DNA from: an uncultured Eubacteriales bacterium
GTDB taxonomy: Bacteria > Bacillota > Clostridia > Oscillospirales > CAJFTT01
Direction: 5' to 3'
Length of the DNA: 54,046 nucleotides
Assembly (NCBI GenBank): GCA_949284545.1
Contig: CASDVX010000069.1
Location: 1 to 54,046 of the forward strand
Shown here: in pieces, positions 5,651 through 27,938 of the stretch
Layout: each line of letters opens with the position of its first letter
Position numbering within the stretch: position 1 is the stretch's first letter
Notes under the pieces: model-generated
The model's input: only the letters and a program-made list of their open reading frames with translations
Database searches by the model: none
Told to the model about the DNA's origin: nothing
Position numbers and translations under genes: made by a program

Positions 5651-5757
5651 GCGATGTGTGCAACAAGCGGCGACGGATAATGGAATGTTTTGAGGGAATA
5701 ACATTGTGGCAGACCTGTTTTTACGGTTTGTAAAATTGCCGAAAACGGCGTCAGGAT

Positions 5758-6549: not shown

Positions 6550-6565
6550 GGAGCTGTACATAAAC

Positions 6566-7405: not shown

Positions 7406-7442
7406 ACATACTATCAACTTTTTTGAAAGGACGCTCCTACAT

Positions 7443-9986: not shown

Positions 9987-10081
9987 CCGTCTTGTTTTAG
10001 GCAGAGTGGCGCGTGTATCGCATCAGCGATGGCCGTCTCCGAATATTTCAGATCTCAGTTCAAAAAAAGTACGGTGATAGT

Positions 10082-10993: not shown

Positions 10994-11124
10994 CTTTTTA
11001 TCTGTCCTGCTTGTTCGCTGCTGATTTACACGTCGCCGGGTTTGCGAATGTTTTTACAATAATTAAACCTTTTGTATTTATTTGCCGGTGCACTTTTGTT
11101 TTCTTATTTTATTTGTTTTAATTA

Positions 11125-11153
11125 TTGACTTTTTGTTTCAAAAGTGGTTTAAT
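11125..11153 (+). promoter_or_regulatory. Sigma-A type promoter with extended -10
   Basis: TTGACT (11125-11130), 17 nt, TTTAAT (11148-11153), preceded by TGg. Confidence 0.45.
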
Positions 11154-11189
11154 CGGTGTGTGCAAAAAATTGCATTGGAGGAGATTGTT

Positions 11190-12548
11190 TTGAAAAAAGT
11201 TACCGCATCAATCCTTGCTGCCGCCGTTGCCCTGAGCATGACGGCCGTAGGCGTGTTGCCCGCTTCCGCAGCGGAAACCGCAAGTGTCGAACGGATATTT
11301 GTTTCGACTGATTCTACAATGAACGCTTCAATCCCCGCGAATCTCGCGTTTGACGGCGATGACACAACGCGCTGGGGCACCGGACATCTTGCCAAAGAAG
11401 CCGACAGCGACGTTCCCACCGATCCGCTTTATATAGGCGTGGATTTCGGCGAGTCAGGCGCCACTTTTGACAAGATCACCGTTGATTGGGAAAACTCATA
11501 TTCAGCCCCCTATGAGAACGGCGGCTTCGTGCTGCAGTACTCTAAGAACGGAACAAGCTGGACTGATTTCCCTGCCTCCGGTATGAGCTCGGTGACCGAT
11601 TCCGCACAGCTTCCTTCCGGCGTGCGCCGCAGAGATATCGGGCAGCTTGAGGAGCCCGTGACCGCACGCTTTGTACGTGTTCTCGTTCTCAAGTTTAAGT
11701 CCACCAGCGCCGGTGCGGACAACATCTCGATTTATGAAATGCAGATATTCAATACTGATGAAGCCGCTGACACAAATCTTGCAGTAGCTCCCGAGGGCGC
11801 CGAGATTTACGTCGGAATACCTGAGGTGGAGGTCGCCAAGGGCACTCCGCAGCGCATTATTGTTAATGATTCAAGAATTTACAACGACAACCTTAAGCAT
11901 CAGTGTGCGTTTGACGGCAAAATGGATACCCGCTGGGGAGCCACCGGTCTTGACGTTGATACGGAAAATCCCATCACCATCGGCCAGTATACCCTTTATC
12001 CGTTTGTCACTCCCATATACATCGGACTCGATTTCGGTAACGAGAAAGTGACTTTCGACAAGATAACCGTTGATTGGGAAGCGGCTGCCGCACACAGCTA
12101 CCTTTTGGGCGGGTTCGTAGTTCAGTATTCCGATACCGGTGCTGACGATGATTGGACCACTATTCCCCGTACCTGCTATAGCAGCACCGGATATGACCGC
12201 AGTAAGACTCCTGCGCGTTCGGATACGTTACTGCTTGATCTTCCCGTAACTGCCAGATATGTGCGCGTAGTTTGCCTTGTTCCCATCCATCAGGCACTCA
12301 ATTCCCCGTCGATTTGGGAAATGCAGATGTTTAACACGACCGTAAGCGACACTGAGAATCTTGCTTTGGTTAAGGACGGAATCAGCGTAGAGAAGATTAC
12401 CGACGAGGGCACAGGTCCTGATGATAACAATCCTCCTCAGACCGGCGTTGAATTCTTTGACGTTGTTTGGCTGGCAGTGCTTGTCGCCGCGGCTGTAACA
12501 GTCCTTTGCGTCGTTTTCATCCCTAAAAGGCACCGCGTGCAGCGTTAA
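11190..12548 (+). CDS. Surface protein with two discoidin (F5/8 type C) domains and a PPQTG-type C-terminal sorting signal
   Basis: A TTG start at 11190 follows GGAGGAG. Signal peptide is LKKVTASILAAAVALSMTAVGVLPASA. Two modules carry (A)FDG..DTRWG...IG(V/L)DFG....FDKITVDWE...V(L/V)QYS...ARFVRV/ARYVRV. The C-terminus is NNPPQTGVEFFDVVWLAVLVAAAVTVLCVVFIPKRHRVQR. Confidence 0.8.
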   Translation: MKKVTASILAAAVALSMTAVGVLPASAAETASVERIFVSTDSTMNASIPANLAFDGDDTTRWGTGHLAKEADSDVPTDPLYIGVDFGESGATFDKITVDWENSYSAPYENGGFVLQYSKNGTSWTDFPASGMSSVTDSAQLPSGVRRRDIGQLEEPVTARFVRVLVLKFKSTSAGADNISIYEMQIFNTDEAADTNLAVAPEGAEIYVGIPEVEVAKGTPQRIIVNDSRIYNDNLKHQCAFDGKMDTRWGATGLDVDTENPITIGQYTLYPFVTPIYIGLDFGNEKVTFDKITVDWEAAAAHSYLLGGFVVQYSDTGADDDWTTIPRTCYSSTGYDRSKTPARSDTLLLDLPVTARYVRVVCLVPIHQALNSPSIWEMQMFNTTVSDTENLALVKDGISVEKITDEGTGPDDNNPPQTGVEFFDVVWLAVLVAAAVTVLCVVFIPKRHRVQR

Positions 12549-12575
12549 TTAAGATATCGTTATACGCGGGCCCAA

Positions 12576-12608
12576 AGCAAGGGAAAACCTACATTTTCCC
12601 TTGCTTTT
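12576..12608 (+). terminator. Rho-independent terminator
   Basis: GCAAGGGAAAA, loop cctaca, TTTTCCCTTGC, followed by TTTTT. Confidence 0.6.
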
Positions 12609-12762
12609 TCCAATAGGATCCGACGTCTGTACGCAGTAACTGTCATTTCCCGGCGGGCATTGCCCCGTATGTTTTCTCGAACCGGTGTGCGGCGGTCAGT
12701 CTTCTGTTATTCGCAGCTACCCGTCACTGTATACAGTAAGTATTAACCTGAAAGGGTGTTTG

Positions 12763-13197
12763 ATGCAAATGGATAAACAAATTGTCTATAACGGCATCGG
12801 TCATGTAGCGTTCAACTGCTCCGATCTTGACGTTTCGCTGGATTTCTACTGCAACAAAATGGGCTTTGAGCGCATAATGCACCTCGGCCCGGATTCTGCC
12901 CCATGGCTGGTATATCTCCGCATAGTTCACGGGGTATACATGGAACTGTTCCCCTTCCCGAAAGGGGCAAAAAAATGCGACGATGGCGCCGGCCGCTGTT
13001 ATTCTCATCTGTGTCTTGACGTACCCGACATATTTGCAGCCGTGAGTGTCCTGCGCAGCAGAGGCGTTGAGGTCGAGGATCCTCACATGGGCGGAGACGG
13101 AAATTATCAGGCATGGCTCGCCGATCCCGACGGCAACAGGATGGAGCTCATGCAGATGATGCCGGATTCCATGCAGCGCAAGGCTGACAAAGCGTGA
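12763..13197 (+). CDS. VOC family (glyoxalase/bleomycin resistance/dioxygenase fold) protein
   Basis: MQMDKQIVYNGIGHVAFNCSDLDVSLDFYCNKMGFE...HLCLDV...AWLADPDGNRMELMQ shows the typical VOC paired beta-alpha-beta-beta-beta motifs. The ATG at 12763 is in frame within the track ORF. Confidence 0.75.
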   Translation: MQMDKQIVYNGIGHVAFNCSDLDVSLDFYCNKMGFERIMHLGPDSAPWLVYLRIVHGVYMELFPFPKGAKKCDDGAGRCYSHLCLDVPDIFAAVSVLRSRGVEVEDPHMGGDGNYQAWLADPDGNRMELMQMMPDSMQRKADKA

Positions 13198-13309
13198 AGC
13201 GCAGTCCGGCGTATCTGTTTCACTGCTATATTCATGGCGACCGTGCCGGTACATATGTCGGCACGGTCCGGTCTTTTATAAAATTACGCAAGCATCGGGG
13301 GCACATGTA

Positions 13310-13525
13310 ATGCTTATAGTGGACAGAATAGAAAATTCCATTGCCGTTGTTGAGGACGGCGACAGTTTTTTTAATATCCCGATCTCCGAACTGCCTCCAG
13401 AAACACGCGAGGGCTCTGTGCTGGTTCGTGACGGCGACCGTTACGTGATCGATGCCGAAGCAACGTCACTGCGTTCATCTTCAATAAAAAGCCGTTTTGA
13501 AAGGCTCAAGAAGAAAAGCAGCTGA
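13310..13525 (+). CDS. DUF3006-like small protein
   Basis: MLIVDRIENSIAVVEDGDSFFNIPISELPPETREGSVLVRDGDRYVID resembles the DUF3006 pattern (IVDRFE..AV.E......i....LP....EG.vl). This rests on family recollection only. Confidence 0.55.
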   Translation: MLIVDRIENSIAVVEDGDSFFNIPISELPPETREGSVLVRDGDRYVIDAEATSLRSSSIKSRFERLKKKSS

Positions 13526-13639
13526 ATCCGGAACCGAATTATGTAAAATAAGACGGAGGTTATCCACCTGCCGGCGGCTTATGCTCCGTTTTTTACATAA
13601 AACACGTCTCTCTGTCAATCCTCAATATTTATTATTTTA

Positions 13640-14125
13640 ATGATATACGGTGATCCCATGAAAACGCAACTGAAAGAAATGCTTGGTTTTATGTTTCACT
13701 TCGATTTGAAAAACCTTTTTCTGTCCCCCACCAAAAACAGTATCATACAGCTGTTCAGGTCAGTTTTTGTCGGGGGCATTTCCACAGTCATAGATTTTAT
13801 CGTTTATGCGCTCATGCGTATTCCGCTTCAGGATTTGCAATTTTGTGATCTTATAGCTACTCCCTGCGGATTTATTGTCGGAACCGTGTTTAATTTCATA
13901 GTTTCACGATTGCTGATATTTAACGCAAACGAGTCGCGCGTTGGCATTAAGGCTGAGTTTGCGGGATTTGCTGTTATAGGGGTCATAGGTCTCGGGATAA
14001 AAGAATTACTGATGTTTTTATTTGTAAATTTGCTGTCAATTCACCATTATCTATCATGGATCGTGTCATCATTTCTTGTTCTCGTTTGGAATTTTGCAGG
14101 CAGAAAGCTTGCACTTTACAAATAA
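13640..14125 (+). CDS. GtrA family membrane protein
   Basis: 161 aa with 4 predicted TM segments. FRSVFVGGISTVIDFIVY...NFIVSRLLIFN...WNFAGRKLALYK matches the GtrA-like pattern. Confidence 0.75.
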   Translation: MIYGDPMKTQLKEMLGFMFHFDLKNLFLSPTKNSIIQLFRSVFVGGISTVIDFIVYALMRIPLQDLQFCDLIATPCGFIVGTVFNFIVSRLLIFNANESRVGIKAEFAGFAVIGVIGLGIKELLMFLFVNLLSIHHYLSWIVSSFLVLVWNFAGRKLALYK

Positions 14126-14270
14126 TTTCCGGTGTTCGGTTTTCCCCAAACCAGTTGCATGCAATTTTGCATGAAATTCATTTTCGGCAGCCCCCACCGC
14201 AGAAATTCAAGTATGCGGTCTCTAACTTCGGATTTGGTGCCATACTTTTGGTCAAATCAGACAATATATG

Positions 14271-14299
14271 TTGATATTGCGACTTTTATATGTCATATT
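14271..14299 (+). promoter_or_regulatory. Putative promoter of discoidin paralog 2
   Basis: TTGATA, 17 nt, TGtCATATT. It sits at the position homologous to the promoter at 15237-15265. Confidence 0.35.
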
Positions 14300-14336
14300 T
14301 ATTAACAATATATAACATAGATTGGAGTGAAAACAC

Positions 14337-14981
14337 ATGAAACTGTTGTCCCGCATAGTCTCCGTTGCCGTTTGTGCGTGTATGGTTCTTTCCATAATCG
14401 CAGCTGCCAGTGCGGAATCCGAAAATCTTGCTTACGGCAAGGCTACAATTGATTACGGTAAACATCAGGGTGATAATGTATCCTCGTATATCACCGACGG
14501 GTACAGATCAGGCGACGAGGCCAAGGCCGCCGGTGTGGCAAACGATTCCCGCTGGGCTGCAGAAACTACTCATGAAGATCAGGCTACCACCGGAGAATGG
14601 TGGGTGGGCGTCGATTTCGGCGAGGCCACAACCTTTGACAAAATCGTGATCTATTGGGAAGTCTGCTACGGCAAGCAGTTCAAGATTCAGACTTCAAACG
14701 ACGCAGCAGAATGGACAGACGTCTCGGACGTTATAACCAACAGCTCTGCAAGCAGGCAGGAAATCATCCTTGATAACCCCGCAACCGCCAAATATATGCG
14801 GGTATTTATCACCGAGAAAGACAATTCCTGGGGTGTCTCTATGTACGAGCTTGAAGCCTACAACACTGACGGCGAAACCACCCCTCCCCAGACCGGTGTT
14901 GAGTCTGTCGCCGTTTGGGCTCTCGTTCTTTTCGGTGCTGCATGCATAGCTGTTTTTTGCACTAAAAAGGTAAAGGCCTGA
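14337..14981 (+). CDS. Single-discoidin-domain surface protein with PPQTG-type sorting signal
   Basis: Signal peptide MKLLSRIVSVAVCACMVLSIIAAASA. Discoidin motifs SRWAAE...GEWWVGVDFGEATTFDKIVIYWEVCYGKQFKIQTSNDAAEWTDV...AKYMRVFI...YELEAYN. C-terminus TTPPQTGVESVAVWALVLFGAACIAVFCTKKVKA. GGAG RBS. Confidence 0.85.
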   Translation: MKLLSRIVSVAVCACMVLSIIAAASAESENLAYGKATIDYGKHQGDNVSSYITDGYRSGDEAKAAGVANDSRWAAETTHEDQATTGEWWVGVDFGEATTFDKIVIYWEVCYGKQFKIQTSNDAAEWTDVSDVITNSSASRQEIILDNPATAKYMRVFITEKDNSWGVSMYELEAYNTDGETTPPQTGVESVAVWALVLFGAACIAVFCTKKVKA

Positions 14982-15006
14982 CTTGCTTAACATTCTCATA
15001 TTCAGG

Positions 15007-15045
15007 GGAAGCGTGCACCGTTGCGGGTGTACGCTTCCTTATTTC
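15007..15045 (+). terminator. Rho-independent terminator
   Basis: GGAAGCGTGCACC, loop, GGTGTACGCTTCC (one G-U pair), then TTATTT. Confidence 0.5.
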
Positions 15046-15236
15046 TATGGTGCCTTGGGTTAAATTTTTTGTGAGCCTTGAGTGACCGGTTCAGACATGC
15101 ACGCGTTCGGCGCAAATACTTTACATTAGCAGTATTTTGCCTCCTAGTGAGATTGAAGGTTGAAGTTTCTTAACTATTAAATAATTGATTTTGCAGTTAC
15201 TTTGAAAATTTTTTGCAAAATTCAATATATATATTG

Positions 15237-15265
15237 TTGACATTTAGTCACAAATATGTTATATA
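15237..15265 (+). promoter_or_regulatory. Putative promoter of discoidin paralog 3
   Basis: TTGACA (15237-15242), 17 nt, TGtTATATA (extended -10; hexamer 15260-15265). Confidence 0.45.
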
Positions 15266-15300
15266 TTATGTTAATAAATCCTTTGATTGGAGTGAAAGGT

Positions 15301-15942
15301 ATGAAAATTGCGTCCCGAATAATTTCTGTTGCTCTCTGTGCATGCATGGCGATCTCAATGGCTGTAGCTGCGTCGGCTGCGTCGGAAAATCTTGCCTTAG
15401 GGAAGGCAACCATTGATTACGGTGCACACCAAAACAATCACACCTCGGATAACATAACTGACGGGTGCAATAATCTTGCGGATGCAGATGCCGCGCAGAT
15501 GCCGGATCAGTCGCGCTGGGCTGCGGCGCAAACCACCGACGGTGTTACCACCGGCGAATGGTGGGTAGGCGTCGATTTCGGCGAAGCAACGACCTTTGAT
15601 AAGCTCGTTATCTACTGGGAAGCCTGTTACGGCAAACAGTTTAAGATCCAGACTTCAGATAACGCCTCTGACTGGAAAGATGTCACAACTGTTTTGACCA
15701 ATGATTCTGCGAATGCGCAGGAAATCATTTTGGATACTCCCGCCAACGCAAAATACGTTCGTATATTCATCACCGAAAAGGCCAATCAGTGGGGCGTGTC
15801 CCTGTTTGAGCTTGAGGTATACAACACCAGCGGCGAAGCTGTTCCCCCTCAGACCGGTGTTGAATCCGTTGCGATTTGGGCACTCGTTCTTTTTGGCGCT
15901 GCGTGCATAACCGTTTTCTGCGTTAAAAAAGTAAAGGCATAA
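15301..15942 (+). CDS. Single-discoidin-domain surface protein with PPQTG-type sorting signal (tandem paralog of 14337-14981)
   Basis: The ATG at 15301 follows GGAGTGAAAGGT. MKIASRIISVALCACMAISMAVAASA; GEWWVGVDFGEATTFDKLVIYWEACYGKQFKIQTSDNASDWKDV; C-terminus AVPPQTGVESVAIWALVLFGAACITVFCVKKVKA. Confidence 0.85.
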   Translation: MKIASRIISVALCACMAISMAVAASAASENLALGKATIDYGAHQNNHTSDNITDGCNNLADADAAQMPDQSRWAAAQTTDGVTTGEWWVGVDFGEATTFDKLVIYWEACYGKQFKIQTSDNASDWKDVTTVLTNDSANAQEIILDTPANAKYVRIFITEKANQWGVSLFELEVYNTSGEAVPPQTGVESVAIWALVLFGAACITVFCVKKVKA

Positions 15943-16108: not shown

Positions 16109-19100
16109 TCAGTACTCAAACTCCCCTTCGTATACGAGCACCACGTCTCCGGTGAGCAGCACACGTTCTTTAGTGTAATTTACCGTAAGGCTGCCTCCCG
16201 CAAGCTTTACGATCACATCGGTACCGCTGTCACACAGCCCGTTTTCAACCGCAGCGGCTACCGCTGCGCATGCTCCGGTGCCGCAGGCAAGCGTCTCACC
16301 GTTTCCGCGCTCCCACACCCTCATACGCAGATAATTTTTGCTTACCGCGCGCACAAATTCCGTGTTTATCCTCTGCGGAAAAAGCTCCGAATATTCAAAT
16401 TTCGGGCCCGTTTCTTTGAGGTCAAGTCCGTCTATTGCGTCGCAGAATACCACGCAATGCGGGTTTCCTACAGACACGCAGGTTATGGAATAATCAGCGC
16501 CGCCTATTTTTACGGGTTTATTTATTATCGTTTCGGTATCTGACACGGCAGGTATATCAGAAGCAAGAAGGCTTGCTCTGCCCATATCCACGGTGACGGA
16601 ACTCACCTTTCCGTCCCTCAGATACAGTTTGAGTCTGTGCACGTTTCCTCCTACTTCGACCGACATGTTTTCGCTGCGTATATATCCCTTGTCATAAAGA
16701 TATTTCGCCACGCAACGTATGTTATTGCCGGCCATTTTACCCTCGCTTCCATCTTTGTTAAAGCTGCGCATTTTCGCGTCGGCTACGGAAGAGCGTTCAA
16801 TCAAAACTATCCCGTCGGAGCCGATTCCGTAATGCGGAGTGCAAAGATTCACGCAAAGTGATTCCGGGCATGTTATCTTGCCATCAAAATTTTCAATGAA
16901 TATATAGTCGTTTCCGCAAGAATGCATCTTTGCAAAATGTATTTTCTGCTTCCAGGATCTCATCGCGTTTATATCGACAAGCTCGGTATTGCTGAAGCTG
17001 AAACGGCTCTCCATTATCTCCGCCAGAGCGTTTGCCGTATCAAGAGAGGTAAAGCATGGAACCCCAAGCTGCATAGCCCGCCGATGGAGCTGAGTGTAAT
17101 CCTCCACCGCCTTGTTTCTGACAGCGCCGGTAAATATCACATAGTTCAGACGTCCGTTTTCCATCAGGTCTACTATTTCGCTCCTGACGCCGTTTCCCGA
17201 AACGCAAACCACCTTTATGCCGAGATTAGCTATGGCGTCCGCCGTGCCGGGAGTGGCATACAGAGTCATTCCCAAGTCGCTGAATCTTTTTGCCACCGGC
17301 AGTATCTCCTGATAGTCGTTTTCCTCAACGCTCATCAGTACCCCAGCGGCGTTTTTACCGCTGTATGACGGCACTGAAAGCCCCGAAGCGCACAGGCCCT
17401 TGAACAATGCCTCGGCGGTGGTTTTGCCGATACCGAGAACCTCTCCTGTGGACTTCATTTCAGGTCCGAGGACGGAATTCGCATCGTTGAGCTTTTCAAA
17501 TGAAAACACGGGTACCTTAACCGCATAGTAAGGCGGGGTACGGTAAAGCCCGGTGCCGTATCCCAAATCCGCAAGGCGGCTTCCCAGCATAACCTTTGAG
17601 GCAAGGTCAACCATTGGAACATTTGTAACCTTACTTATATACGGAACGGTCCTCGACGCTCTGGGGTTTACTTCAATAACGTAGAGCTCGTTTTCGTATA
17701 TAAGATACTGTATATTTACAAGCCCTTTCGTCCCCAGAGCCAACGCCAGCTTTTCCGAGCAGTCACATACTTTTTTCAGAAACTTATCGTTGAGATTGTA
17801 CGGCGGATATACAGCTATCGAGTCACCGCTGTGTATGCCGGCTCTTTCAACATGCTCCATTATTCCCGGTATCAGCACGTCTTCTCCGTCGGAAATAACG
17901 TCAACCTCAAGCTCGGTTCCGGGCATATACTTGTCGATGAGAACAGGATTTTCTATTCCCTGCGCCAGTATTCTGTCCATGTATTCCGACGTTTCCGACT
18001 CGCATCTTGAAATTGTCATGTTCTGCCCGCCGATGACATACGACGGCCTCAAAAGCACCGGATACCCGAGCTCCTCCGCGGCTTTCAGCGCCTCGGCCTT
18101 TGCCGTCACGCCCATTCCCTTCGGCCTTCTTATCCCGAATTTTTCAAGGAGAGCGTCAAAACGGCTCCTGTCCTCGGCTATGTCTATCCCTTCCGCGGAT
18201 GTTCCGAGTATCTTTATGCCGTTGCGGTCCAGATACCCTGTGAGCTTTATGGCGGTCTGTCCGCCGAACGCTACCACAACTCCTACCGGATTCTCAACCT
18301 GTATCACGTTCATTACGTCCTCGGGACACAGAGGTTCAAAATACAGTCTGTCTGCGGTATCGTAATCGGTGGATACCGTCTCGGGGTTGTTGTTGATGAT
18401 GACCACGTCGTATCCCATTTCCCGCAGAGTCCATACGCAGTGCACGGAGCTATAGTCAAACTCTATCCCCTGCCCTATGCGTATCGGGCCTGAGCCGAGT
18501 ACGACCACCACCGGCTTGCCGCTGCGTCTGAAGGCTCTCGCTTCGCACACGCCCCCCGCGCAGGAATAGAAATACGGCGTCTCCGCGTCAAATTCCGCGC
18601 CGCAGGTGTCCACCATCTTATAGCTCATCTTAAACTCCGGCAGTTCCTTTTGGCCGGATATGCGCCTGATTGCATCATCGGTATATCCCATTTTCTTTGC
18701 CTGTCCGTACGTCTTTTCCGACAGGTCTCCGGACGCCATAACCGCTTCGAAATCAGCAAGTTTTTTCAGCTTGTTTATAAACCACTCGTCTATCATGGTT
18801 ATCCGATGTATTTCTTCTGTGGTTACTCCGGATTTAAGCGCCTCAAACACGGTAAACAGCCTGTGATCGTTTTGCTCGGCAAGCCGTTCAATTACAGGCT
18901 TATCCGAAAGCGGCGCAGCGTTTAGGGTATCCAGCGAGATCTCCGCTCCACGGACAGCCTTCATAAGCGCCGACTCAAAGCTGTGGCCTATGGCCATCAC
19001 CTCGCCCGTAGCCTTCATCTGTGTGCCGAGCTCCCTGCTGGAACCTGCAAATTTGTCAAACGGCCACTTCGGAAGTTTGACTACAACGTAATCAAGCGTC

Positions 19101-20143
19101 GGTTCAAAGCAGGCGCAGGTTTTTCCTGTGATGTCGTTTTTAATTTCGTCAAGGGTATAACCCAGGGCAATTTTAGTCGTGATTTTTGCAATAGGATATC
19201 CCGTAGCTTTCGACGCAAGCGCCGACGAACGCGAAACTCTGGGGTTGACCTCTATAACGGCGTATTCGAAGCTCTCAGGATCGAGCGCAAACTGGCAGTT
19301 ACATCCTCCGACTATTCCTATCTCGGAAATCATGTTGAGAGACGCAGAACGGAGCATCTGATACTCCTTGTCCGCGAGCGTAAGCGCCGGGGCCACAACT
19401 ATCGAGTCACCGGTATGCACTCCCACCGGGTCAAAGTTTTCCATTGAGCAGACAGCTATCACGTTGCCGGCGCTGTCCCGCATCGTCTCAAACTCGATTT
19501 CTTTCCACCCGGATATGCATTTTTCCACCAGCACCTGTGTTATGGGCGACATATCCAGACCGCTGCGGGCTATTGTTTGAAGTTCCTCCGGGCTGTGAGC
19601 TATCCCGCCGCCGCTGCCTCCGAGCGTAAATGCGGGACGCACGATGACCGGATACCCTATCTCGTCGGCTATCTTAAGCGCTTCCGGAACGGTCTCCGCA
19701 GTATCGGACGGCACCACGGGCTGGCCGATTTTTTTCATAGTGTCGCGAAAAAGCTCCCTGTCCTCGGCTTTTTCTATGGCATCTATCCCGGAACCCAGCA
19801 GCTTTACTCCGTATTTTTCAAGCGTACCGTTTTTTGAAAGCTGCATAGCTACTGTGAGCCCGGTCTGTCCACCGAGCCCGGCGAGCAGTCCGTCCGGGCG
19901 CTCCTTTTCGATTATACGGGCTACCGTTTCGGCGTTCAGCGGCTCCAGATATATTTCGTCCGCTAAATTCTTATCGGTCATTATGGTAGCGGGGTTCGAG
20001 TTTACCAGAACTACGTTTATACCCTCATCCCGGAGGACCCTGCATGCTTGGGCTCCCGCATAGTCAAATTCGGCGGCCTGTCCTATGACTATCGGGCCCG
20101 AGCCTATCACCAGAACCTTGCGGACTGAATTATCTTTAGGCAT
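16109..20143 (-). CDS. carB: Carbamoyl-phosphate synthase large subunit fused in frame to a C-terminal diaminopimelate-epimerase-like (DapF-fold) domain
   Basis: 1344-aa ORF. The first ~1060 aa are canonical CarB (MPKDNSVRKVLVIGSGPIVIGQAAEFDYAGAQAC..., two ATP-grasp halves, an MGS-like C-terminal domain). The last ~280 aa (16112-16963) read ..KIHFAKMHSCGNDYIFI...SFNKDGSEGKMAGNNIRC...VGNPHCVVF...WERGNGETLACGTGACAAVAAAV, which are DapF motifs. No stop codon separates the two parts. Confidence 0.9.
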   Translation of the reverse strand: MPKDNSVRKVLVIGSGPIVIGQAAEFDYAGAQACRVLRDEGINVVLVNSNPATIMTDKNLADEIYLEPLNAETVARIIEKERPDGLLAGLGGQTGLTVAMQLSKNGTLEKYGVKLLGSGIDAIEKAEDRELFRDTMKKIGQPVVPSDTAETVPEALKIADEIGYPVIVRPAFTLGGSGGGIAHSPEELQTIARSGLDMSPITQVLVEKCISGWKEIEFETMRDSAGNVIAVCSMENFDPVGVHTGDSIVVAPALTLADKEYQMLRSASLNMISEIGIVGGCNCQFALDPESFEYAVIEVNPRVSRSSALASKATGYPIAKITTKIALGYTLDEIKNDITGKTCACFEPTLDYVVVKLPKWPFDKFAGSSRELGTQMKATGEVMAIGHSFESALMKAVRGAEISLDTLNAAPLSDKPVIERLAEQNDHRLFTVFEALKSGVTTEEIHRITMIDEWFINKLKKLADFEAVMASGDLSEKTYGQAKKMGYTDDAIRRISGQKELPEFKMSYKMVDTCGAEFDAETPYFYSCAGGVCEARAFRRSGKPVVVVLGSGPIRIGQGIEFDYSSVHCVWTLREMGYDVVIINNNPETVSTDYDTADRLYFEPLCPEDVMNVIQVENPVGVVVAFGGQTAIKLTGYLDRNGIKILGTSAEGIDIAEDRSRFDALLEKFGIRRPKGMGVTAKAEALKAAEELGYPVLLRPSYVIGGQNMTISRCESETSEYMDRILAQGIENPVLIDKYMPGTELEVDVISDGEDVLIPGIMEHVERAGIHSGDSIAVYPPYNLNDKFLKKVCDCSEKLALALGTKGLVNIQYLIYENELYVIEVNPRASRTVPYISKVTNVPMVDLASKVMLGSRLADLGYGTGLYRTPPYYAVKVPVFSFEKLNDANSVLGPEMKSTGEVLGIGKTTAEALFKGLCASGLSVPSYSGKNAAGVLMSVEENDYQEILPVAKRFSDLGMTLYATPGTADAIANLGIKVVCVSGNGVRSEIVDLMENGRLNYVIFTGAVRNKAVEDYTQLHRRAMQLGVPCFTSLDTANALAEIMESRFSFSNTELVDINAMRSWKQKIHFAKMHSCGNDYIFIENFDGKITCPESLCVNLCTPHYGIGSDGIVLIERSSVADAKMRSFNKDGSEGKMAGNNIRCVAKYLYDKGYIRSENMSVEVGGNVHRLKLYLRDGKVSSVTVDMGRASLLASDIPAVSDTETIINKPVKIGGADYSITCVSVGNPHCVVFCDAIDGLDLKETGPKFEYSELFPQRINTEFVRAVSKNYLRMRVWERGNGETLACGTGACAAVAAAVENGLCDSGTDVIVKLAGGSLTVNYTKERVLLTGDVVLVYEGEFEY

Positions 20144-21197
20144 GCCTGTTCCCCTCCATCATATCGATAAATCTGTCAAACAAAAACTCCGTATCGTGCG
20201 GCCCGCCGCACGCTTCCGGATGAAACTGGACCGTAAAGCAGTTAAGTCCCGGGTACTCCATTCCCTCGCAGGTGCCGTCGTTGGCGTTCACAAACGTTAT
20301 TTTGCCGTTTTTTACGCTGTCACCCACCACCGCATACCCGTGATTCTGGCTGGTTATAAATGTCCTGCTGCCGTTTACTTCCTTGGCCGGCTGGTTACCG
20401 CCTCTGTGGCCGTATTTCATTTTTACTGTCCTGCCGCCCATTGCCAGTGCGGTCAGCTGGTGGCCGAGACATATCCCGAATACCGGCACCTTGCCAATAA
20501 ATTTCCTTATCTGCTCAATGGCAAACGCATTGTCTTCAGGGTCGCCCGGCCCGTTGGACAGCATTATCCCATCAGGATTCTCAGCAAGTATATCCTCCGC
20601 CGAAGCGCTGCATGGCACAACCCTGACCTCACAGCCTCTGTTGCAAAGGCTCCTGATTATGTTTTTCTTCGCTCCGTAATCTATCAGTGTCACGGAATAC
20701 TTTTTTGCTCCGCCCGCAGGATATACTTGCGTCTCCGGCGTGCTCACCTGCTCCACGACATCCTTCACCCTGTATTCCCTCAATTTTGAGAGATCGGAAG
20801 GAACCTCGTCGCAGATCATGGCATTCATCACGCCTTCTTCGCGTATCGTTCGGGTAAGCTCTCTGGTGTCAACTCCGCAAATGCCGCAGATCCCGTTGTT
20901 CTTCAGAAAGGTATCCAAAGTGTACCTGCTTCTGAAATTTGACGGCGTATCGCAGCACTCTCGCACGACATATCCGCGAGCTGCGCATTTTCCCTCAAAG
21001 TCGTCCTCGTTCACTCCGTAGTTGCCTATCAGCGGGAACGTTTGTATTATTATTTGACCCGCGTAGCTGGGATCGGTAAGCGTTTCAGTATAGCCGACCA
21101 TACCGGTCGTGAAAACCAGCTCGCCCATCCCGTCGCAGTCCGCGCCTATGCGTTCGCCTTCAAATACCCTGCCGTTACTCAATATCAGATAAGCCAT
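20136..21197 (-). CDS. carA: Carbamoyl-phosphate synthase small (glutaminase) subunit
   Basis: MAYLILSNGRVFEGERIGA...; class I amidotransferase motif PVFGICLGHQL; 8-nt overlap with the carB start. Confidence 0.95.
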   Translation of the reverse strand: MAYLILSNGRVFEGERIGADCDGMGELVFTTGMVGYTETLTDPSYAGQIIIQTFPLIGNYGVNEDDFEGKCAARGYVVRECCDTPSNFRSRYTLDTFLKNNGICGICGVDTRELTRTIREEGVMNAMICDEVPSDLSKLREYRVKDVVEQVSTPETQVYPAGGAKKYSVTLIDYGAKKNIIRSLCNRGCEVRVVPCSASAEDILAENPDGIMLSNGPGDPEDNAFAIEQIRKFIGKVPVFGICLGHQLTALAMGGRTVKMKYGHRGGNQPAKEVNGSRTFITSQNHGYAVVGDSVKNGKITFVNANDGTCEGMEYPGLNCFTVQFHPEACGGPHDTEFLFDRFIDMMEGNRHA

Positions 21198-21271: not shown

Positions 21272-22255
21272 TCACAGTGTAGCGGCCATGACCGCCTTTA
21301 TTGTATGCATTCTGTTTTCAGCTTCGTCAAACACAATCGACCTGCCGCTTTCAAATACTTCGTCCGTCACTTCCATGCAATCTATGCCGAATTTGTCAAA
21401 AACATCTTTTCCCGTTTCGGTCTTCAGGTCGTGGAACGCGGGAAGGCAATGCATGAATCTGCATCCGTCGCCGGCAATATCCATCAGCTCCGAGGTCACG
21501 CGATAAGGTGAAAGCGCTTCTATGCGCTCTTTCCACACGCTTTCCGGTTCCCCCATGGAGACCCATACATCCGTGTAAATAACATCCGCTCCCTTTACGG
21601 CTTCTTTAGGATCTTCAATGAAATTCAGTTGGGCGTCCGTCTCAGCTGCCAAAGACCTGCACGCGGACACAAGCTCAGGGGACGGGAAATAGGCTTTGGG
21701 GGCGCAGGCGGTAAAACGCATCCCCATTTTCGCGCATCCCACCATAAGCGAATTGCCCATATTGTACCTGGCGTCTCCCATATATACCAGCTTTTTCCCG
21801 GCAAGAGACCCGAAATGCTCTCTTATAGTCAAAAAATCCGCGAGTATCTGAGTCGGATGCCATTCGTTTGTCAGACCGTTCCATACCGGAACACCCGCAT
21901 AACGAGCGAGCTCCTCAACAATTTCCTGCCCGTATCCCCTGTACTCGATACCGTCAAACATTCTTCCGAGAACTCTCGCCGTATCGGCAATGCTTTCCTT
22001 TTTGCCTATCTGAGAGCTCTTCGGGTCGAGGTACACGGGATGTATGCCCAGATCGGCGGCAGCTACCTCAAACGAACAGCGGGTGCGAGTGCTGGTTTTT
22101 TCAAATATCAGCGCAATATTTTTCCCCTGGAACATTCTGTGGGAAATGCCCTCTTTTTTTTGCTTCTTGAGCTGCGCCGCCAGATCCAGCAGTCCGCCTA
22201 TTTCCTCCGGGGTAAAATCGAGCAATTTCAAAAAACTTCTGCCTTTAAGCTGCAT
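21272..22255 (-). CDS. argF: Ornithine carbamoyltransferase
   Basis: [21 protein letters not shown] and HCLPAFH motifs. Confidence 0.9.
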
Positions 22256-22319
22256 TTTCAGACCGCCTTTACAAATTTATTGTTTGCCTGCGCACCGCGC
22301 ATGCCGTCCGGCACATCCA

Positions 22320-23492
22320 TCATATGCCTTCACCGCACACCGACGCAATTGTCTCGGCCGCTTCCGTGAGAAGCTCCGCGGGTATGTTAAGCGCCGGCAA
22401 CAAGCGCACCTTGTTTTTAGCCGTCAGGCACAGCACGCCCCTGCCTATGCATTCTCTGACTACATCGGCGGCAGGCTTTACCGTTTCAAGCCCTATCATG
22501 AGCCCCATTCCGCTTACCGACAGTATCCCTTTTCTGCCCTCAAACAGTTTCCTCGCCAAGCGACCCTTCTCCGTCACGCTTACGAGAAACTCGTCGGTAA
22601 GCCTGTTTATTACGGATACAGCGCCCGCGCAGCATACAGGGTTCCCTCCGTATGTGGAACCGTGGTCCCCGGGCTCGAAAATGTCGGCCGTTTTGCTCCC
22701 AAACAGTGTAGCGCCTATGGGGAGTCCGCCGCCCAGCCCCTTTGCCGTCGTGACTATGTCGGGATCTATCCCGAAATTCATATAAGAATATAATTTACCC
22801 GTTCTGCCGTTTCCCGTCTGAACCTCATCAATTATGAGAAGCACGTTTTCCCGCTGTGCAATTCCGGCGGCGGCTTTTATGTAGTCCCCGTCCAGAGGGA
22901 GCACCCCGCCTTCTCCCTGTATGCACTCAAGCATTACAGCCGCGGTCTTGTTGGCCGCTACGGCGTTTTCAATAGCTGCGATATCGTTTGCGGGAACGTA
23001 TTCAAAGCCGGATGTCAGCGGCCTGTACAGCTCGTGGTAATGATCCTGACCCGTCGCCGCAAGAGTGGTGATAGTTCTGCCGTGAAAGCCGTTTCTCACG
23101 GTAACAATTGTGTAATGGTCTTCGCCCTTACACTTTGCCGCGTATTTTCTGGCTGCTTTAATGGCACATTCATTGGCCTCCGCTCCGGAATTTGAAAAAA
23201 ACACTTTTTTCATGCCGGTTTTTTTGCAAAGAATCTCTGCAAGTTCAACGCACGGCGAAGTGTAAAAAAGGTTTGACATATGCTGCAGCTTGGCTGCCTG
23301 AGACGATACGGCGGCTACCCATTCGTCATCCGCCGTTCCGAATAACGTCACCCCTATGCCCGACGTCATATCTATGTATCTTTTACCCGCTGTATCGTAA
23401 ACTTCAGAGCCTTTCCCACGGCATATTTCAACCGGGAATCGGTTATAAGTGCCGGCAATATACTCCTTGTCCTTTACCATTATTTCGCTCAT
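22320..23492 (-). CDS. argD: Acetylornithine aminotransferase
   Basis: Class III aminotransferase (SNSGAEANECAIKAARKY, IIDEVQTGNGRTGK, TTAKGLGGG) in an arg operon context. Confidence 0.9.
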   Translation of the reverse strand: MSEIMVKDKEYIAGTYNRFPVEICRGKGSEVYDTAGKRYIDMTSGIGVTLFGTADDEWVAAVSSQAAKLQHMSNLFYTSPCVELAEILCKKTGMKKVFFSNSGAEANECAIKAARKYAAKCKGEDHYTIVTVRNGFHGRTITTLAATGQDHYHELYRPLTSGFEYVPANDIAAIENAVAANKTAAVMLECIQGEGGVLPLDGDYIKAAAGIAQRENVLLIIDEVQTGNGRTGKLYSYMNFGIDPDIVTTAKGLGGGLPIGATLFGSKTADIFEPGDHGSTYGGNPVCCAGAVSVINRLTDEFLVSVTEKGRLARKLFEGRKGILSVSGMGLMIGLETVKPAADVVRECIGRGVLCLTAKNKVRLLPALNIPAELLTEAAETIASVCGEGI

Positions 23493-23528
23493 GTTAAGTC
23501 CTCCAGACGCGGCCGCAAACGCGCGTGA

Positions 23529-24398
23529 TTATCTTTTTGTCCCGGTGACCATGGTTCCGGCGCCTTCGTCGGTGAGAAGCTCCATGAGAATGGAGTGCGG
23601 CACCCGCCCGTCCATTATTACGACGTTTTTAACGCCGCGGCTTATGGCTTCTATACAGCAGTCTACCTTAGGTATCATGCCGCCGGAAACAATGCCTTTT
23701 GAATAAAGCTCTTTGGCTTCCTCCGTAGTGAGTTCGGTTATTATACTTGACGGGTCATTCTTGTCCCGCAGTATTCCTGCTATGTCGGTCATCATTATGA
23801 GCCGTTCCGCGTTCATGGCTCCGGCTATATGCGCCGCGGCCGTATCGCCGTTTATGTTGTACGCGTTCCCTTCCCTGTCGCAGCCGACGGTGGATATCAC
23901 GGGGATGTATCCCTTTTCCAAAAGGTCGGTGACCGGTCCTATATTTATTCCGGTTATATTCCCAACATATCCAAGTCTTTCGTCCTTTATCTCGGCTTCG
24001 ATCAGCCGCCCGTCCATTCCGGATATCCCTATCGCCCTGCCGCCCTTCATCTCAAGAAGATTGACAAGCGTCTTGTTCACCTTGCCCGTCAGCACCATTT
24101 GGACTATGTCCACGGTTTCCTTATCCGTAACGCGCAGTCCGTCTACAAATTCGGGCTTTTTGCCCAGCTTATCCATGACTTCCGTGATCTCCGGGCCTCC
24201 GCCGTGGACAAGCACTATCTTTACTCCGATGAGCCACAGCAGGACTATATCCTCCATGACCTGCTGCTTCAGCTTATCGTTTATCATTGCGTTCCCGCCG
24301 TACTTTACCACAACTATTTTCCCGTTATATCTCTTTATGTGCGGCAGCGCCTGGGTAAGCACCTCCGCCCGTTGAAGGTTTGAAAAGCAGTTATCCAT
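23529..24398 (-). CDS. argB: Acetylglutamate kinase
   Basis: KIVVVKYGGNAM, VLVHGGGPEI and NINGDTAA motifs. Confidence 0.95.
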   Translation of the reverse strand: MDNCFSNLQRAEVLTQALPHIKRYNGKIVVVKYGGNAMINDKLKQQVMEDIVLLWLIGVKIVLVHGGGPEITEVMDKLGKKPEFVDGLRVTDKETVDIVQMVLTGKVNKTLVNLLEMKGGRAIGISGMDGRLIEAEIKDERLGYVGNITGINIGPVTDLLEKGYIPVISTVGCDREGNAYNINGDTAAAHIAGAMNAERLIMMTDIAGILRDKNDPSSIITELTTEEAKELYSKGIVSGGMIPKVDCCIEAISRGVKNVVIMDGRVPHSILMELLTDEGAGTMVTGTKR

Positions 24399-24409
24399 TT
24401 TTATCCACC

Positions 24410-25624
24410 TTAAGTTCTGTAATCTCCGTTTATTTTCACGTAATCATAGGTAAGGTCGCATCCCCATGCCGAAGCCTCGGCGTTACCCATGTTAAGTGAC
24501 ACGAGTATATCGATTTCTTTTTCCAGAAGTATCTCTTTCGCCTTTTCCTCTGAAAAGCTTACGCCTGAACCGTTTTCGCACACAACCACCGTTCCTTTTG
24601 CGGAGGAAAACGACACGCCTATTTTGCCTATGTCCACAGCTGCTCCGCTGTAGCCGATAGCGCACAGGACGCGTCCCCAGTTGGCATCGGCTCCGAACAT
24701 GGCTGCCTTCAGCAGACTGGAACATATCACGCTCTTCGCAACGGTTTTGGCAGTTGCGGTATCGGGCGCTCCGCTTACCTTGCATTCCAGAAGCTTTGTG
24801 GCGCCTTCCCCGTCGCCTGCGATCATTCTGCACAGATGTACGTTGACCGTGTTAAGAGCCTTCATGAACTCACGGAAATCATCTCCGTCACACGCAATCT
24901 CATCATTGCCGGCAAGCCCGTTTGCCATCACGGCAACCATGTCGTTGGTAGATGTGTCCCCGTCAATGCTTATCATGTTGAATGTATCAGACACATCTTC
25001 CGAGAGAGCCTTTTGAAGCATTTCCCGGGATATGGCTACGTCCGTAGTTATAAACACAAGCATAGTGGCCATATTGGGGTGTATCATGCCGCTGCCCTTC
25101 GCGATACCTCCCATCCGGCATTTTCTGCCGCCGACCGTGAATTCCACCGCTATCTCTTTTTTTACCGTATCTGTCGTCATTATAGCCTCCGCAGCGTCGC
25201 TCCCTCCGTTGTAAGAAAGCGCGGAAGAAAGCATAGGCATCCCGGATGCTATAGGCGAAATGTCCAGCGGCTGACCTATTACGCCCGTAGAGGCTACTAT
25301 AACGTCGCTGCTGCGTATGCCGGTGGCTTCGGCGGTAAGGCGGCTCATCTCTTCCGCTATTTCGGCTCCGTCGGCATTGCATGTATTTGCGTTTCCGCTG
25401 TTGCATATCACCGCACGGGCCACACCGTCTTGAATATGTCTGCGGGTCACCTCTATCGGGGCACCCTTAACAAGATTTGTCGTATAAACCGCCGCCGCCG
25501 CGGCCGGTACATCGCTGACTATCAGCGCCAGATCCTTTTTCATATGATTCTTGCGTATACCGCAATGTATGCCGGCAGCCTTAAAGCCTTTTGCCGCGCA
25601 AACTCCGCCGGAAATCAGTTCCAT
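24410..25624 (-). CDS. argJ: Bifunctional glutamate N-acetyltransferase / amino-acid acetyltransferase
   Basis: GFKAAGIHCGIRKN...; autoprocessing site ATMLVFITTD; C-terminus DLTYDYVKINGDYRT. Confidence 0.95.
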   Translation of the reverse strand: MELISGGVCAAKGFKAAGIHCGIRKNHMKKDLALIVSDVPAAAAAVYTTNLVKGAPIEVTRRHIQDGVARAVICNSGNANTCNADGAEIAEEMSRLTAEATGIRSSDVIVASTGVIGQPLDISPIASGMPMLSSALSYNGGSDAAEAIMTTDTVKKEIAVEFTVGGRKCRMGGIAKGSGMIHPNMATMLVFITTDVAISREMLQKALSEDVSDTFNMISIDGDTSTNDMVAVMANGLAGNDEIACDGDDFREFMKALNTVNVHLCRMIAGDGEGATKLLECKVSGAPDTATAKTVAKSVICSSLLKAAMFGADANWGRVLCAIGYSGAAVDIGKIGVSFSSAKGTVVVCENGSGVSFSEEKAKEILLEKEIDILVSLNMGNAEASAWGCDLTYDYVKINGDYRT

Positions 25625-25736
25625 ATCCGTTCACCGTTTCTTTGACTAAACAAAGATCCTTTCTTCCTCTGTTGATTTATTCTGTCACGGGCAGACTGCG
25701 GCCCGAATATGCGTACCTATGAAATCCGGCGCGGGT

Positions 25737-26660
25737 TCAGCACTCCAGGCCGGTTGTCTCATCGGCGCCCAGGACTATATTCATATTTTGTATCGCAGCG
25801 CCGGACGCGCCTTTTCCCAGGTTGTCATAACGCGCCACAAGAAGTATCCTGTCATCGTTCCCACACACCGTTATCTGCATATCGTCCCTCCCGGACAGCG
25901 CCGCTGCGGACAGAAACCCTTTTTCATCGCAGTTCTCCGCGTATTTTACAAGCCCGCTTGTATATGCGTCCCTGTACACGCTGCGTATATCCTCTGCCGT
26001 ACCCGAAATGTCAGCAGAAAACAGCGGCACCGTTACCTCCATACCGCTGTAAAACGGCGCGACCACCGGGCAGAACACAGGGCTTCTTGTCAGTCCGCAA
26101 ACGGCGGTCATTTCCTTAAGGTGCTTGTGAGTCTGAGTCAGGCCGTACTGTCTCGGCGCCGAAAGTAGGACGGAATTGCCCGATGCCTCGTATTCCGATA
26201 TCATGGATTTCCCTCCGCCGGAATACCCGGTCAGGGAAAAACAGCTCAGTCCCGCGTCTCTGCTTAATATGCCGGCTGCAATCAGCGGGTTTACAAGGGC
26301 TATAAATCCGCTTGCGTGGCATCCCGGATTTGCAATACGCTTGGATGCCGCTATTCTTTCGCGCATACCTGAGAGCTCGGCGAATCCGTACGTCCATCCC
26401 GGCGATGTCCTGTGCGCAGTAGACGTATCTATTACCACCGTGTCCGGGTTCCCCACCATCGACACCGCTTCCTGCGCCGCCGCGTCCGGCAGACAGAGAA
26501 ACGCAATATCAGCAGCGTTTAACGCCTCTTTCCTCGCCGAGGGGTCTTTTCTCCTGTCTTCCGGCAACGTTATCAGTGAGATATCCTTTCTGCCCGACAG
26601 TCTGTCAAATATGCGCAGTCCGGTGGTTCCCGCGCTGCCGTCAATGAAAATATTCGTCAT
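25737..26660 (-). CDS. argC: N-acetyl-gamma-glutamyl-phosphate reductase (short type-2 form)
   Basis: MTNIFIDGSAGTTGLRI...NPGCHASG (catalytic Cys). The ATG at 26660 follows GGAGGAATC. The track ORF extends upstream to 26711 without an RBS. Confidence 0.9.
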   Translation of the reverse strand: MTNIFIDGSAGTTGLRIFDRLSGRKDISLITLPEDRRKDPSARKEALNAADIAFLCLPDAAAQEAVSMVGNPDTVVIDTSTAHRTSPGWTYGFAELSGMRERIAASKRIANPGCHASGFIALVNPLIAAGILSRDAGLSCFSLTGYSGGGKSMISEYEASGNSVLLSAPRQYGLTQTHKHLKEMTAVCGLTRSPVFCPVVAPFYSGMEVTVPLFSADISGTAEDIRSVYRDAYTSGLVKYAENCDEKGFLSAAALSGRDDMQITVCGNDDRILLVARYDNLGKGASGAAIQNMNIVLGADETTGLEC

Positions 26661-26717
26661 GATTCCTCCGACTTGCGAGACACCGCCCTGCGTTAAAACG
26701 TAGGACGGCATCGGCTT

Positions 26718-27938
26718 TTATTTATTCTTTGCATCCACCATGGCCTGAACCTTGATGGGCAGGCCGTAAAGATTGATAAATCCTTCCGAATCCTTCTGAT
26801 TGTAATCGCTTTCGCCGAATGTGGCTATCTCCTCACTGTAAAGTGAGTACGGGCTCCAAACCCCGGCATTTATCATGTTGCCCTTGTAGAGCTTCAGGCG
26901 AACTTTGCCGGTGACCTTTTCCTGTGTCTTGTCCACAAAGGCGCTGAGAGCCTCGCGCAGAGGCGTGAACCACTGTCCGTTATATACCAGCTCCGCGAAC
27001 GTGACCGACAGCTTCTGCTTTTCGTGCATGGTCATTTTATCAAGACAGATAGATTCAAGCACACTGTGCGCCTTGTAGAGGATGGTCCCCCCCGGGGTCT
27101 CGTACACTCCGCGGCACTTCATGCCGACAAGCCGGTTCTCAACTATATCAAGGATACCGATACCGTTTTCGCCGCCGAGTTTATTGAGCTTAAGAATTAT
27201 ATCCTTGGCGCTCATTTTCTCCCCGTTCAGCGCGGTCGGAACGCCCTTTTCAAAATCAAGCTCGATGTATGTCGGCACATCGGGTGCGTCTATCGGAGAA
27301 ACGCCCATTTCAAGGAACCCTTTTTTCTCGTACTGAGGCTCATTCCCGGTATCTTCAAGGTCAAGCCCCTCATGGGAAAGGTGCCACAGGTTTTTATCCT
27401 TGGAATAGTTAGTCTCGCGGTTTATCTTAAGAGGCACGTTGTGCGCTTCGGCGTATTCTATCTCTTCCTCGCGGGATTTGAGCGACCATTCTCGCCACGG
27501 TGCGATTATCGGCATATTGGGTGCGAAATGCTTGATCGTAAGCTCAAAACGCACCTGATCGTTGCCTTTTCCGGTGCATCCGTGACATATGGCGTCAGCC
27601 CCCTCCTTGAGCGCTATGTCCACAAGCCCTTTCGCTATGCAGGGGCGCGCATGGCTCGTTCCCAGCAGATATTCCTCGTACACGGCCCCGGCCTTCATTG
27701 TGGGTATTATATAATCGTTTACGTATTCGTCCGTCAGGTCAAGTACGTACAGTTTAGAAGCGCCGGTCTTTATCGCCTTTTCCTCAAGGCCTTCCAGCTC
27801 GTCCGCCTGGCCCACGTTTCCGGATACTGCGATCACTTCGCAGTCGTTGTAATTCTCCTTCAGCCACGGGATGATAATCGAAGTATCAAGACCGCCTGAG
27901 TACGCAAGAACCACTTTCTTTATGTTTTCTTTATTCAT
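26718..27938 (-). CDS. argG: Argininosuccinate synthase
   Basis: [34 protein letters not shown]. Confidence 0.95.

Follow-up and report, generated by a model that had tools for sequence, protein, structure and literature searches.

Carbamoyl phosphate synthetase (CPSase) is a textbook allosteric enzyme. It is known to respond to UMP, IMP and ornithine, and in animals also to N-acetylglutamate. In Escherichia coli the large subunit, CarB, is regulated by UMP, IMP and ornithine via its C-terminal allosteric domain. Diaminopimelate (DAP) epimerase, DapF (EC 5.1.1.7), is a two-domain enzyme in which two catalytic cysteines, numbered Cys73 and Cys217 in the Haemophilus enzyme, serve as acid and base. 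Here we describe a gene, carB::dapF, in which CarB is continued in frame into a DapF-like domain with the first of these cysteines replaced by alanine. It lies on a 54,046-nucleotide stretch of DNA from an uncultured Eubacteriales bacterium (contig CASDVX010000069.1), which we call the window.

Regulatory modules derived from enzymes are found in other pathways. A chorismate-mutase-like domain is carried by the DAH7P synthase of Bacillus and Geobacillus, and HisZ, an inactive paralogue of HisRS, regulates HisG. DapF of E. coli is itself a protein-binding activator of RppH (PMC6061791). In these systems a domain with the fold of an enzyme binds a metabolite or a partner and controls another enzyme, and catalytic residues are dispensable. 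The window's protein may be of this kind; its donor (DAP/lysine) and recipient (arginine) pathways differ from them in having no obvious connection. Another group for comparison consists of the one-base descendants of two-base racemases, i.e. trans-3-hydroxy-L-proline dehydratase (Cys/Thr, proline-racemase fold), arylmalonate decarboxylase (Cys/Gly, Asp/Glu-racemase fold) and the Asp/Glu racemase EcL-DER (Thr/Cys). As in the window's domain, one acid/base residue is replaced and the other kept. Those enzymes changed their substrate pocket, whereas in the window the pocket is unchanged and there are relatives that lack both cysteines. The architecture described here combines known kinds, i.e. 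CarB, DapF and enzyme-derived regulatory domains. No account of a CarB-DapF fusion, or of forms of it that lack the cysteines, turned up in full-text searches of the literature, in agreement with an earlier sequence-only reading of the window, which knew of none.

The carB::dapF gene and its catalytic positions

The fusion is encoded by a single uninterrupted open reading frame (ORF; Table 1). In an NCBIfam search the protein matches the CarB equivalog NF003671 over residues 1-1047 with 1445 bits (1404 bits for TIGR01369), and then the DapF equivalog TIGR00652 over residues 1068-1342 with 267-272 bits, against a cutoff of 115 bits. The carB frame thus runs on without a stop into a DapF-like domain, just as the sequence-only reading had stated. 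All the CarB domains are present (Pfam CPSase_L_D1 and D2 twice each, D3 and MGS), the C-terminal section of the CarB part aligns with residues 765-1051 of E. coli CarB 1A9X, and with its two ATP-grasp units, oligomerisation and MGS-like domains and adjacent carA this part of the protein is a CarB.

The C-terminal part has the two-domain fold of DapF together with the sequence-family match. Pfam PF01678 (DAP_epimerase) matches it twice, i.e. in both halves, and its best match among PDB sequences using phmmer is Bacillus anthracis DapF 2OTN (E = 8.6e-66). An AlphaFold2 model of residues 927-1344 has a mean predicted local distance difference test score (pLDDT) of 88.6 and a predicted template modelling score (pTM) of 0.72, with pLDDT values of 64-74 at the junction. 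Compared with solved DapF structures using Foldseek, the DapF-like part of the model gives target-normalised template modelling scores of 0.86-0.91; 3-hydroxyproline dehydratases are also retrieved, as more distant relatives of the fold. The DapF motifs quoted previously are all found in the translation (KMHSCGNDY, GNPHCV and ERGNGETLACGTG). The domain had been described as complete and about 280 amino acids long; the DapF fold is indeed complete, and it starts near residue 1068. Since residues 1051-1062 (NTELVDINAMR) look like the usual end of a CarB protein, the linker proper has about five residues.

The catalytic cysteine pair is not present in this domain. In the phmmer alignments with PDB sequences the window's SEGKMAGNNIRC aligns to SEGKSCGNGLRC of B. 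anthracis DapF 2OTN and to SEPEMCGNGIRC of the cyanobacterial DapF 9MRO, and Ala1138, encoded by GCC, therefore occupies the position of Cys73. Alignment with Haemophilus influenzae DapF gives the same correspondence, of C73 with A1138 and of C217 with C1287. The second catalytic cysteine is thus retained, as Cys1287. Both assignments agree with those made from the sequence at the outset. Apart from the Cys73 to Ala and Gly76 to Asn substitutions, the domain differs from DapF proteins (TIGR00652, PF01678; 2OTN, 9MRO, 2GKE) in its location at the C-terminus of CarB and in an arginine operon, not with genes of lysine or cell-wall synthesis; it resembles them in its fold, its above-cutoff score, its DAP contacts and its second catalytic cysteine.

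Compared with E. coli CarB (1JDB, 1A9X), the window's protein has all the same domains, and an adjacent CarA with overlapping stop and start, but it has 280 extra residues after the allosteric domain, and Lys954, Lys993 and Glu892 (E. coli numbering) are replaced. Among the 63 sequences of the window's clade (defined below) Lys954 is replaced by Tyr in 53 and Glu892 by Val in all 63, and the position of Lys993 is Asn in 54, with Gly in the window itself. Ser948, Thr974, Thr977, Thr1042, Glu783 and Asp791 are unchanged in the clade. We take Glu783, Asp791 and Glu892 to be ornithine-site residues, of which the first two are kept. As judged by this alignment the E. coli-type nucleotide-effector site (Lys954, Thr974, Thr977 and Lys993) is not intact, both lysines being replaced and both threonines kept. 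Lys993 is crucial for the binding of UMP, and Thr1042 binds ornithine (PMC6245113).

Conservation in the clade and in the wider fusion family

Homologues were sought in one genome per GTDB species, using the junction and DapF part as query. This gave 176 candidate stretches that encode a relative, and the locus-level results for the clade rest on the best 80 of these. All 80 are from metagenome-assembled genomes (MAGs) of gut or rumen Clostridia, with 67-78% identity. An uninterrupted fusion ORF of 1332-1349 amino acids is found in 62 of the 80 loci, each from a species-level genome; with the window these make up the set of 63 full-length sequences. Position 73 is Ala in 63/63, and in all of the best 120 homologues whose motif was readable. 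The same 1344-residue protein, identical throughout, is moreover encoded on three independently assembled contigs (an NCBI record, ENA ERZ17292905 and Logan SRR29429240). The earlier view that a single base error is unlikely is borne out, and orthologous fusions that conserve the Ala, a point raised there as a check, do exist. The idea that the fusion or the Ala is an artefact of sequencing or assembly, or that the gene is a decaying pseudogene, has no observation in its favour and is refuted by the three assemblies, the intact orthologues, the conservation of the Ala and the purifying selection described below.

It is also very unlikely that the two parts only seem to be fused, with the DapF-like one translated separately from the in-frame ATG of Met1061. 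In favour of this are the conservation of Met1061 in the window's clade and the many database entries with a length of 284 amino acids. Yet entries of 284, 272, 386, 408 and 449 amino acids fit the positions of in-frame Met codons in ORFs truncated at contig edges, and the one 284-residue case examined on a long contig is due to a run of N inside carB; 'stand-alone' 284-residue Ala-type proteins were consequently rejected as contig-edge and scaffold-gap artefacts. By eye no Shine-Dalgarno-like sequence is seen upstream of the ATG, Met1061 is replaced by Leu in other fusions, and the surrounding segment resembles the usual CarB tail. In public annotation the full-length members are named 'carbamoyl-phosphate synthase large subunit', and the fragments 'diaminopimelate epimerase, partial'.

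The DapF-like domain is under purifying selection in the clade. The ratio of non-synonymous to synonymous substitution rates (dN/dS; Nei-Gojobori method, 25 closely related pairs) is 0.01-0.2, near that of the CarB core. Over the 63 sequences the DapF-like part has a mean pairwise identity of 71%, which compares with 69% in the allosteric domain and 81% in the CarB core. Twelve residues of the pocket (N11, N64, G74, N75, N157, H159, N190, E208, R209, C217, G218 and T219) are all invariant, in a domain in which only 27% of columns are invariant; the chance of this is about 1.6e-7. Every DAP-contact residue of DapF is present (N11, N64, G74, N75, N157, N190, E208, R209, G218 and S/T219). When the clade is compared with 90 canonical DapF representatives, nine positions distinguish the two (E1084, N1085, C1092, S1095, C1097, A1138, N1141, R1176 and F1342), all of them in domain I, i.e. 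the half that adjoins CarB (naive probability about 0.001). One of these is the position of Gly76, which is Gly or Ala in canonical DapF and Asn in 60/63 of the clade. As far as can be judged from sequences, this is the pattern of a pseudoenzyme or sensor, with a catalytic residue lost and the fold and pocket under purifying selection.

We note two further cysteines, Cys1092 and Cys1097 (TCPESLC, window 16851-16870 on the reverse strand), that are specific to the Ala clade (98-100%) and replaced by Ser at both positions in Cys-retaining fusions. They are located in the first helix of domain I, presumably on the exterior of the barrel, and it seems unlikely that either is a relocated catalytic thiol.

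An exhaustive search using 50%-identity representatives shows that the nearest relatives beyond the clade include CarB-DapF fusions that retain Cys73, and others with Gly. One complete Cys-retaining fusion (P0125, 1349 amino acids, motif CGNAIRC) is encoded in the Oscillospiraceae MAG GCA_050950425.1. The Cys-retaining fusions share their architecture, junction motif and spacing with the window's protein, and the DapF parts are 53% identical; they differ in keeping Cys73 and Cys217, and both Lys954 and Lys993 of the allosteric domain, and presumably they are truly bifunctional. The junction, NTEL[VI]DIN.[ML]R with five residues between it and the first strand of DapF, is common to all the fusions examined. 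As we read E. coli CarB, the first part of this motif resembles the tail with which CarB normally ends. Even so, the junctions have identical spacing, which points to a single fusion event, older than the loss of the cysteine.

The wider family was counted over 154 fused sequences that contain both the allosteric and the DapF parts. Residue 73 is Ala in 82, Cys in 45, Gly and Ser in 13 each, and Asn in one; residue 217 is Cys in 139, Ser in 10, Ala in three, and Tyr and Thr in one each, i.e. it is not Cys in 15. By contrast with these cysteines, N64, N157, N190, E208 and R209 persist in 149-154 of the 154 sequences, and the same five contacts are kept in 13-14 of the 14 fusions that lack both cysteines. 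By parsimony on a rough neighbour-joining tree, residue 73 has changed from Cys to another residue or back at least seven times, and residue 217 at least five times. The family can thus dispense with its catalytic residues but not with the pocket, which argues for a role in binding and not in catalysis. The family is old and widespread and extends beyond the Clostridia clade, with members in MAGs of Treponema sp. (Gly/Cys at residues 73/217), Chitinivibrionia (Gly/Cys), Syntrophomonas (Ser/Thr and Ser/Ala) and Oscillospiraceae (Cys/Cys). The loss of Cys73 and that of Lys954 and Lys993 are not strictly linked, since 31 fusions without Cys73 still keep both lysines; for the same reason we reject the idea that Cys73 was lost because the nucleotide site had been lost.

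In the window's clade the fusion gene always ends an arginine operon, (argG-argC-argJ-argB-argD-)argF-carA-carB::dapF. The gene for the Cys-retaining fusion P0125 lies in a plain carA-carB bicistron, and those for another Cys-retaining fusion (L082) and for a Ser/Ser one (L084) adjoin pyrG; none of the three is in an arg operon. No second copy of carB was found in the flanks of the related loci, and no match between MAGs carrying the Cys-type and the Ala-type fusions was found among the few accessions compared.

Several observations were made on individual loci. In the product of the L084 gene (positions 9613-11989; JGI 3300024493, Ga0264413_105193) CarB is represented by its C-terminal half alone, starting near residue 504, with the allosteric and Ser/Ser DapF-like domains; no carA or N-terminal half of CarB is found upstream, and pyrG lies 12 nt downstream. 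This may be one part of a split CarB, or what is left of a truncated gene. On JAQXGO010000057.1 (L088, positions 1-12063) a fused carB-dapF is convergent to a cell-division and cell-wall cluster, ftsZ-murA-murG-ftsW-mraY-murF-murE-pbp, which may be coincidence. Four bins containing the Clostridial arg-carAB::dapF operon (L025, L027, L044 and L046) are titled Collinsella aerofaciens, Bacteroidaceae, Phascolarctobacterium succinatutens and Escherichia coli; all four come from one '_cleanbin_' series and so are probably mislabelled. DapF occurs in fusions of other kinds too, with DapF followed by a Mur-ligase (MurE/MurF-like) module, or preceded by a GNAT acetyltransferase (proteins P0256, 776 amino acids, and P0235, 427 amino acids).

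Possible roles of the DapF-like domain

Our favoured reading, to which we give a probability of a little under one half (about 0.45), is that the domain has given up epimerisation and kept the ability to bind DAP or a close analogue, and that it acts as a regulatory or sensor module of an arginine-pathway CPSase. Lacking the thiol on the L face, the domain would be unable to interconvert LL- and meso-DAP, and it would bind DAP or a very close analogue without turnover. The very short tether would hold it against the remodelled allosteric domain. In the least certain step, the movement of DapF from open to closed on ligand binding would be passed to that domain, so that CPSase activity or oligomeric state responds to the DAP pool; such a response is proposed because the adjacent allosteric domain has lost its UMP/IMP-binding lysines in the clade. 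The sequence-only reading had likewise suggested a ligand-binding pseudoenzyme, possibly sensing ornithine, DAP or lysine. The fusion is real, the Ala strictly conserved and the contacts invariant, the domain is under purifying selection, and in related fusions cysteines have been lost repeatedly with the pocket kept; together these features mark a domain that binds without catalysing. The loss of activity, the ligand and any effect on CPSase are inferences. Precedents are the inactivity of the E. coli DapF double mutant described below and the activation of RppH by DapF. Since the pocket does not differ from that of DapF, DAP is favoured over ornithine and lysine as the candidate ligand. Citrulline, considered by analogy with O-ureidoserine racemase, was set aside; the pocket is DapF-like throughout and DAP is the simplest candidate.

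Some points weigh against this proposal. The pocket residues could be conserved for stability of the fold instead of ligand binding. Cys217, His159 and Glu208 are each kept in 63/63, and are not obviously needed by a pure sensor. Contact between the DapF-like and allosteric domains is only presumed, the model having a pTM of just 0.72 and a linker pLDDT of 64-74. To our knowledge there is no physiological reason for an arginine-specific CPSase to sense DAP.

That same invariance of Cys217, His159 and Glu208 would be expected if the domain were still an enzyme working with a single thiol. It might epimerise DAP slowly, or with the aid of a water molecule that Asn1141, the His and the Glu hold where the thiol has been lost, or it might catalyse a new one-base reaction on a DAP-like substrate (elimination, dehydration or stereospecific protonation). 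The Asn found in place of Gly76, beside Ala73, would suit such a mechanism, as would the 3-hydroxyproline dehydratases among the distant relatives of the fold; one-Cys variants with altered or unidirectional chemistry, and eliminations catalysed by DapF, have been reviewed (PMC8142540). Moreover, if the genome has no other dapF, any activity would have to come from the fusion gene. On searching the window and the 80 related loci with their flanks of about 1.3 Mb by tblastn with canonical DapF sequences, the fused copy was the only one found. In some Firmicutes a PLP-dependent dapF2 has been validated as a substitute for DapF (PMC9026213; bioRxiv 10.1101/2024.10.14.618325). We nevertheless consider a single-thiol enzyme unlikely. 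Sister fusions (Ser/Ser, Ser/Ala, Ser/Thr and Gly/Ser) have lost both cysteines and kept the pocket, which argues against catalysis as the function under selection in this family; DAP has no leaving group at the beta position for elimination; the pocket is unchanged from that of DapF, with no sign of a new substrate; and E. coli DapF with the C73A and C217A substitutions together had no detectable activity (PMC6061791).

The repeated loss of catalytic residues would equally be seen if an ancestral bifunctional CarB-DapF had lost its epimerase function, and the domain were now kept for the folding, stability or oligomerisation of CarB with no role for a ligand. The trigger might have been duplication into pyrimidine-type and arginine-type paralogues, or acquisition of another route to meso-DAP. 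Specialisation of paralogues fits the location of Cys-retaining fusions in a plain carA-carB bicistron as against that of the Ala type in arg operons, and DapF proteins are dimers in which dimerisation matters for activity (PMC6061791). A scaffold does not predict, however, that all twelve pocket residues should be invariant against 27% of columns, nor that the pocket should be kept where both cysteines are gone, and the dN/dS is as low as in the catalytic core of CarB. A purely structural relic therefore seems doubtful to us.

The DAP-binding regulatory domain might also be read more broadly, as belonging to an undescribed and widespread family in which an epimerase domain turned into a DAP sensor more than once, the DAP input replacing the UMP/IMP site in the window's clade; this is possible, if rather less than probable, on the sequences compared.

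Genomic context and significance

The features of the fusion gene and its operon are collected in Table 1. The overlap of the carA stop with the carB start suggests translational coupling. No Rfam family scored above threshold in the 54-kb window, and nothing was found upstream of the Cys-type carA.

Table 1. Coordinates in the window of the carB::dapF gene, its parts and key codons, and the genes upstream of it.
Feature	Position	Strand	Basis or remark
carB::dapF-like fusion ORF	16109..20143	-	1344 amino acids, uninterrupted; ORF list and translation, Pfam/NCBIfam domains
CarB part, residues 1-1060	16964..20143	-	Two ATP-grasp units, oligomerisation domain, MGS-like allosteric domain
MGS-like allosteric domain, residues 931-1050	16994..17353	-	Pfam PF02142 at residues 946-1032
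Junction, residues 1051-1067	16943..16993	-	CarB tail NTELVDINAMR, linker SWKQK, first DapF strand; holds in-frame ATG
DapF-like domain, residues 1068-1344 and stop codon	16109..16942	-	TIGR00652, best PDB match 2OTN, Foldseek
Met1061, in-frame ATG	16963-16961	-	Inside junction
Ala1138 codon GCC, at catalytic Cys73 position	16730..16732	-	Alignments to solved DapF proteins; Ala 63/63
Asn1141 codon, at Gly76 position	16721..16723	-	Clade-specific, first helix turn beside Ala1138; Asn 60/63
Cys1287 codon TGC, second catalytic cysteine (Cys217)	16283..16285	-	Cys 63/63
K954 to Y944 (E. coli numbering to window)	17312-17314	-	Alignment to E. coli CarB
K993 to G983 (E. coli numbering to window)	17195-17197	-	Alignment to E. 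coli CarB
E892 to V	17513-17515	-	Alignment to E. coli CarB
carA, glutaminase subunit	20136..21197	-	NF009475, 449 bits; stop overlaps carB start by 8 nt
argG-argC-argJ-argB-argD-argF, upstream arginine operon genes	21272..27938	-	Pfam/NCBIfam

Directly upstream of argG, across an intergenic region of 294 nt, is a gene for a 948-residue CotH-kinase-like protein with InlB B-repeat and FIVAR domains (28233-31079, reverse strand). Beyond this the gene for a radical SAM/SPASM protein (31527-32909, forward strand) shares 4 nt with the next ORF (32906-34231, forward strand), the product of which has an Orn/Lys/Arg-decarboxylase fold; the two are an unusual pair to find beside an arginine operon. A long polysaccharide-synthesis locus follows on one strand (36555-51600, reverse), encoding among others a Wzz-like protein, a ParA/tyrosine-kinase-like ATPase, an FrhB-like Fe-S protein, a pyruvyl transferase, a flippase and a GT1 glycosyltransferase. 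Convergent with the end of the arginine operon is a run of forward-strand ORFs (11082-15942) that includes three of F5/8-type-C (discoidin) type (11082-12548, 14337-14981 and 15256-15942) and a GtrA-like membrane protein (13640-14125); an F5/8-type-C domain is also carried by a GH2 glycosidase (2607-5465, reverse strand).

The fusions score above the DapF cutoff and their fragments are named 'diaminopimelate epimerase', so that metabolic reconstructions may credit these MAGs with DapF activity; the Ala, Gly and Ser forms of the fusion, to judge by their sequences, probably have none. The members with both, one or neither of the cysteines and an unchanged pocket provide a natural series for the change from enzyme to sensor. 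If the proposed role is correct, CPSase would receive a new regulatory input through the DAP pocket set on its allosteric domain, and there would be an unexpected link between the synthesis of arginine and a precursor of the cell wall and lysine in abundant Clostridia of the gut and rumen.

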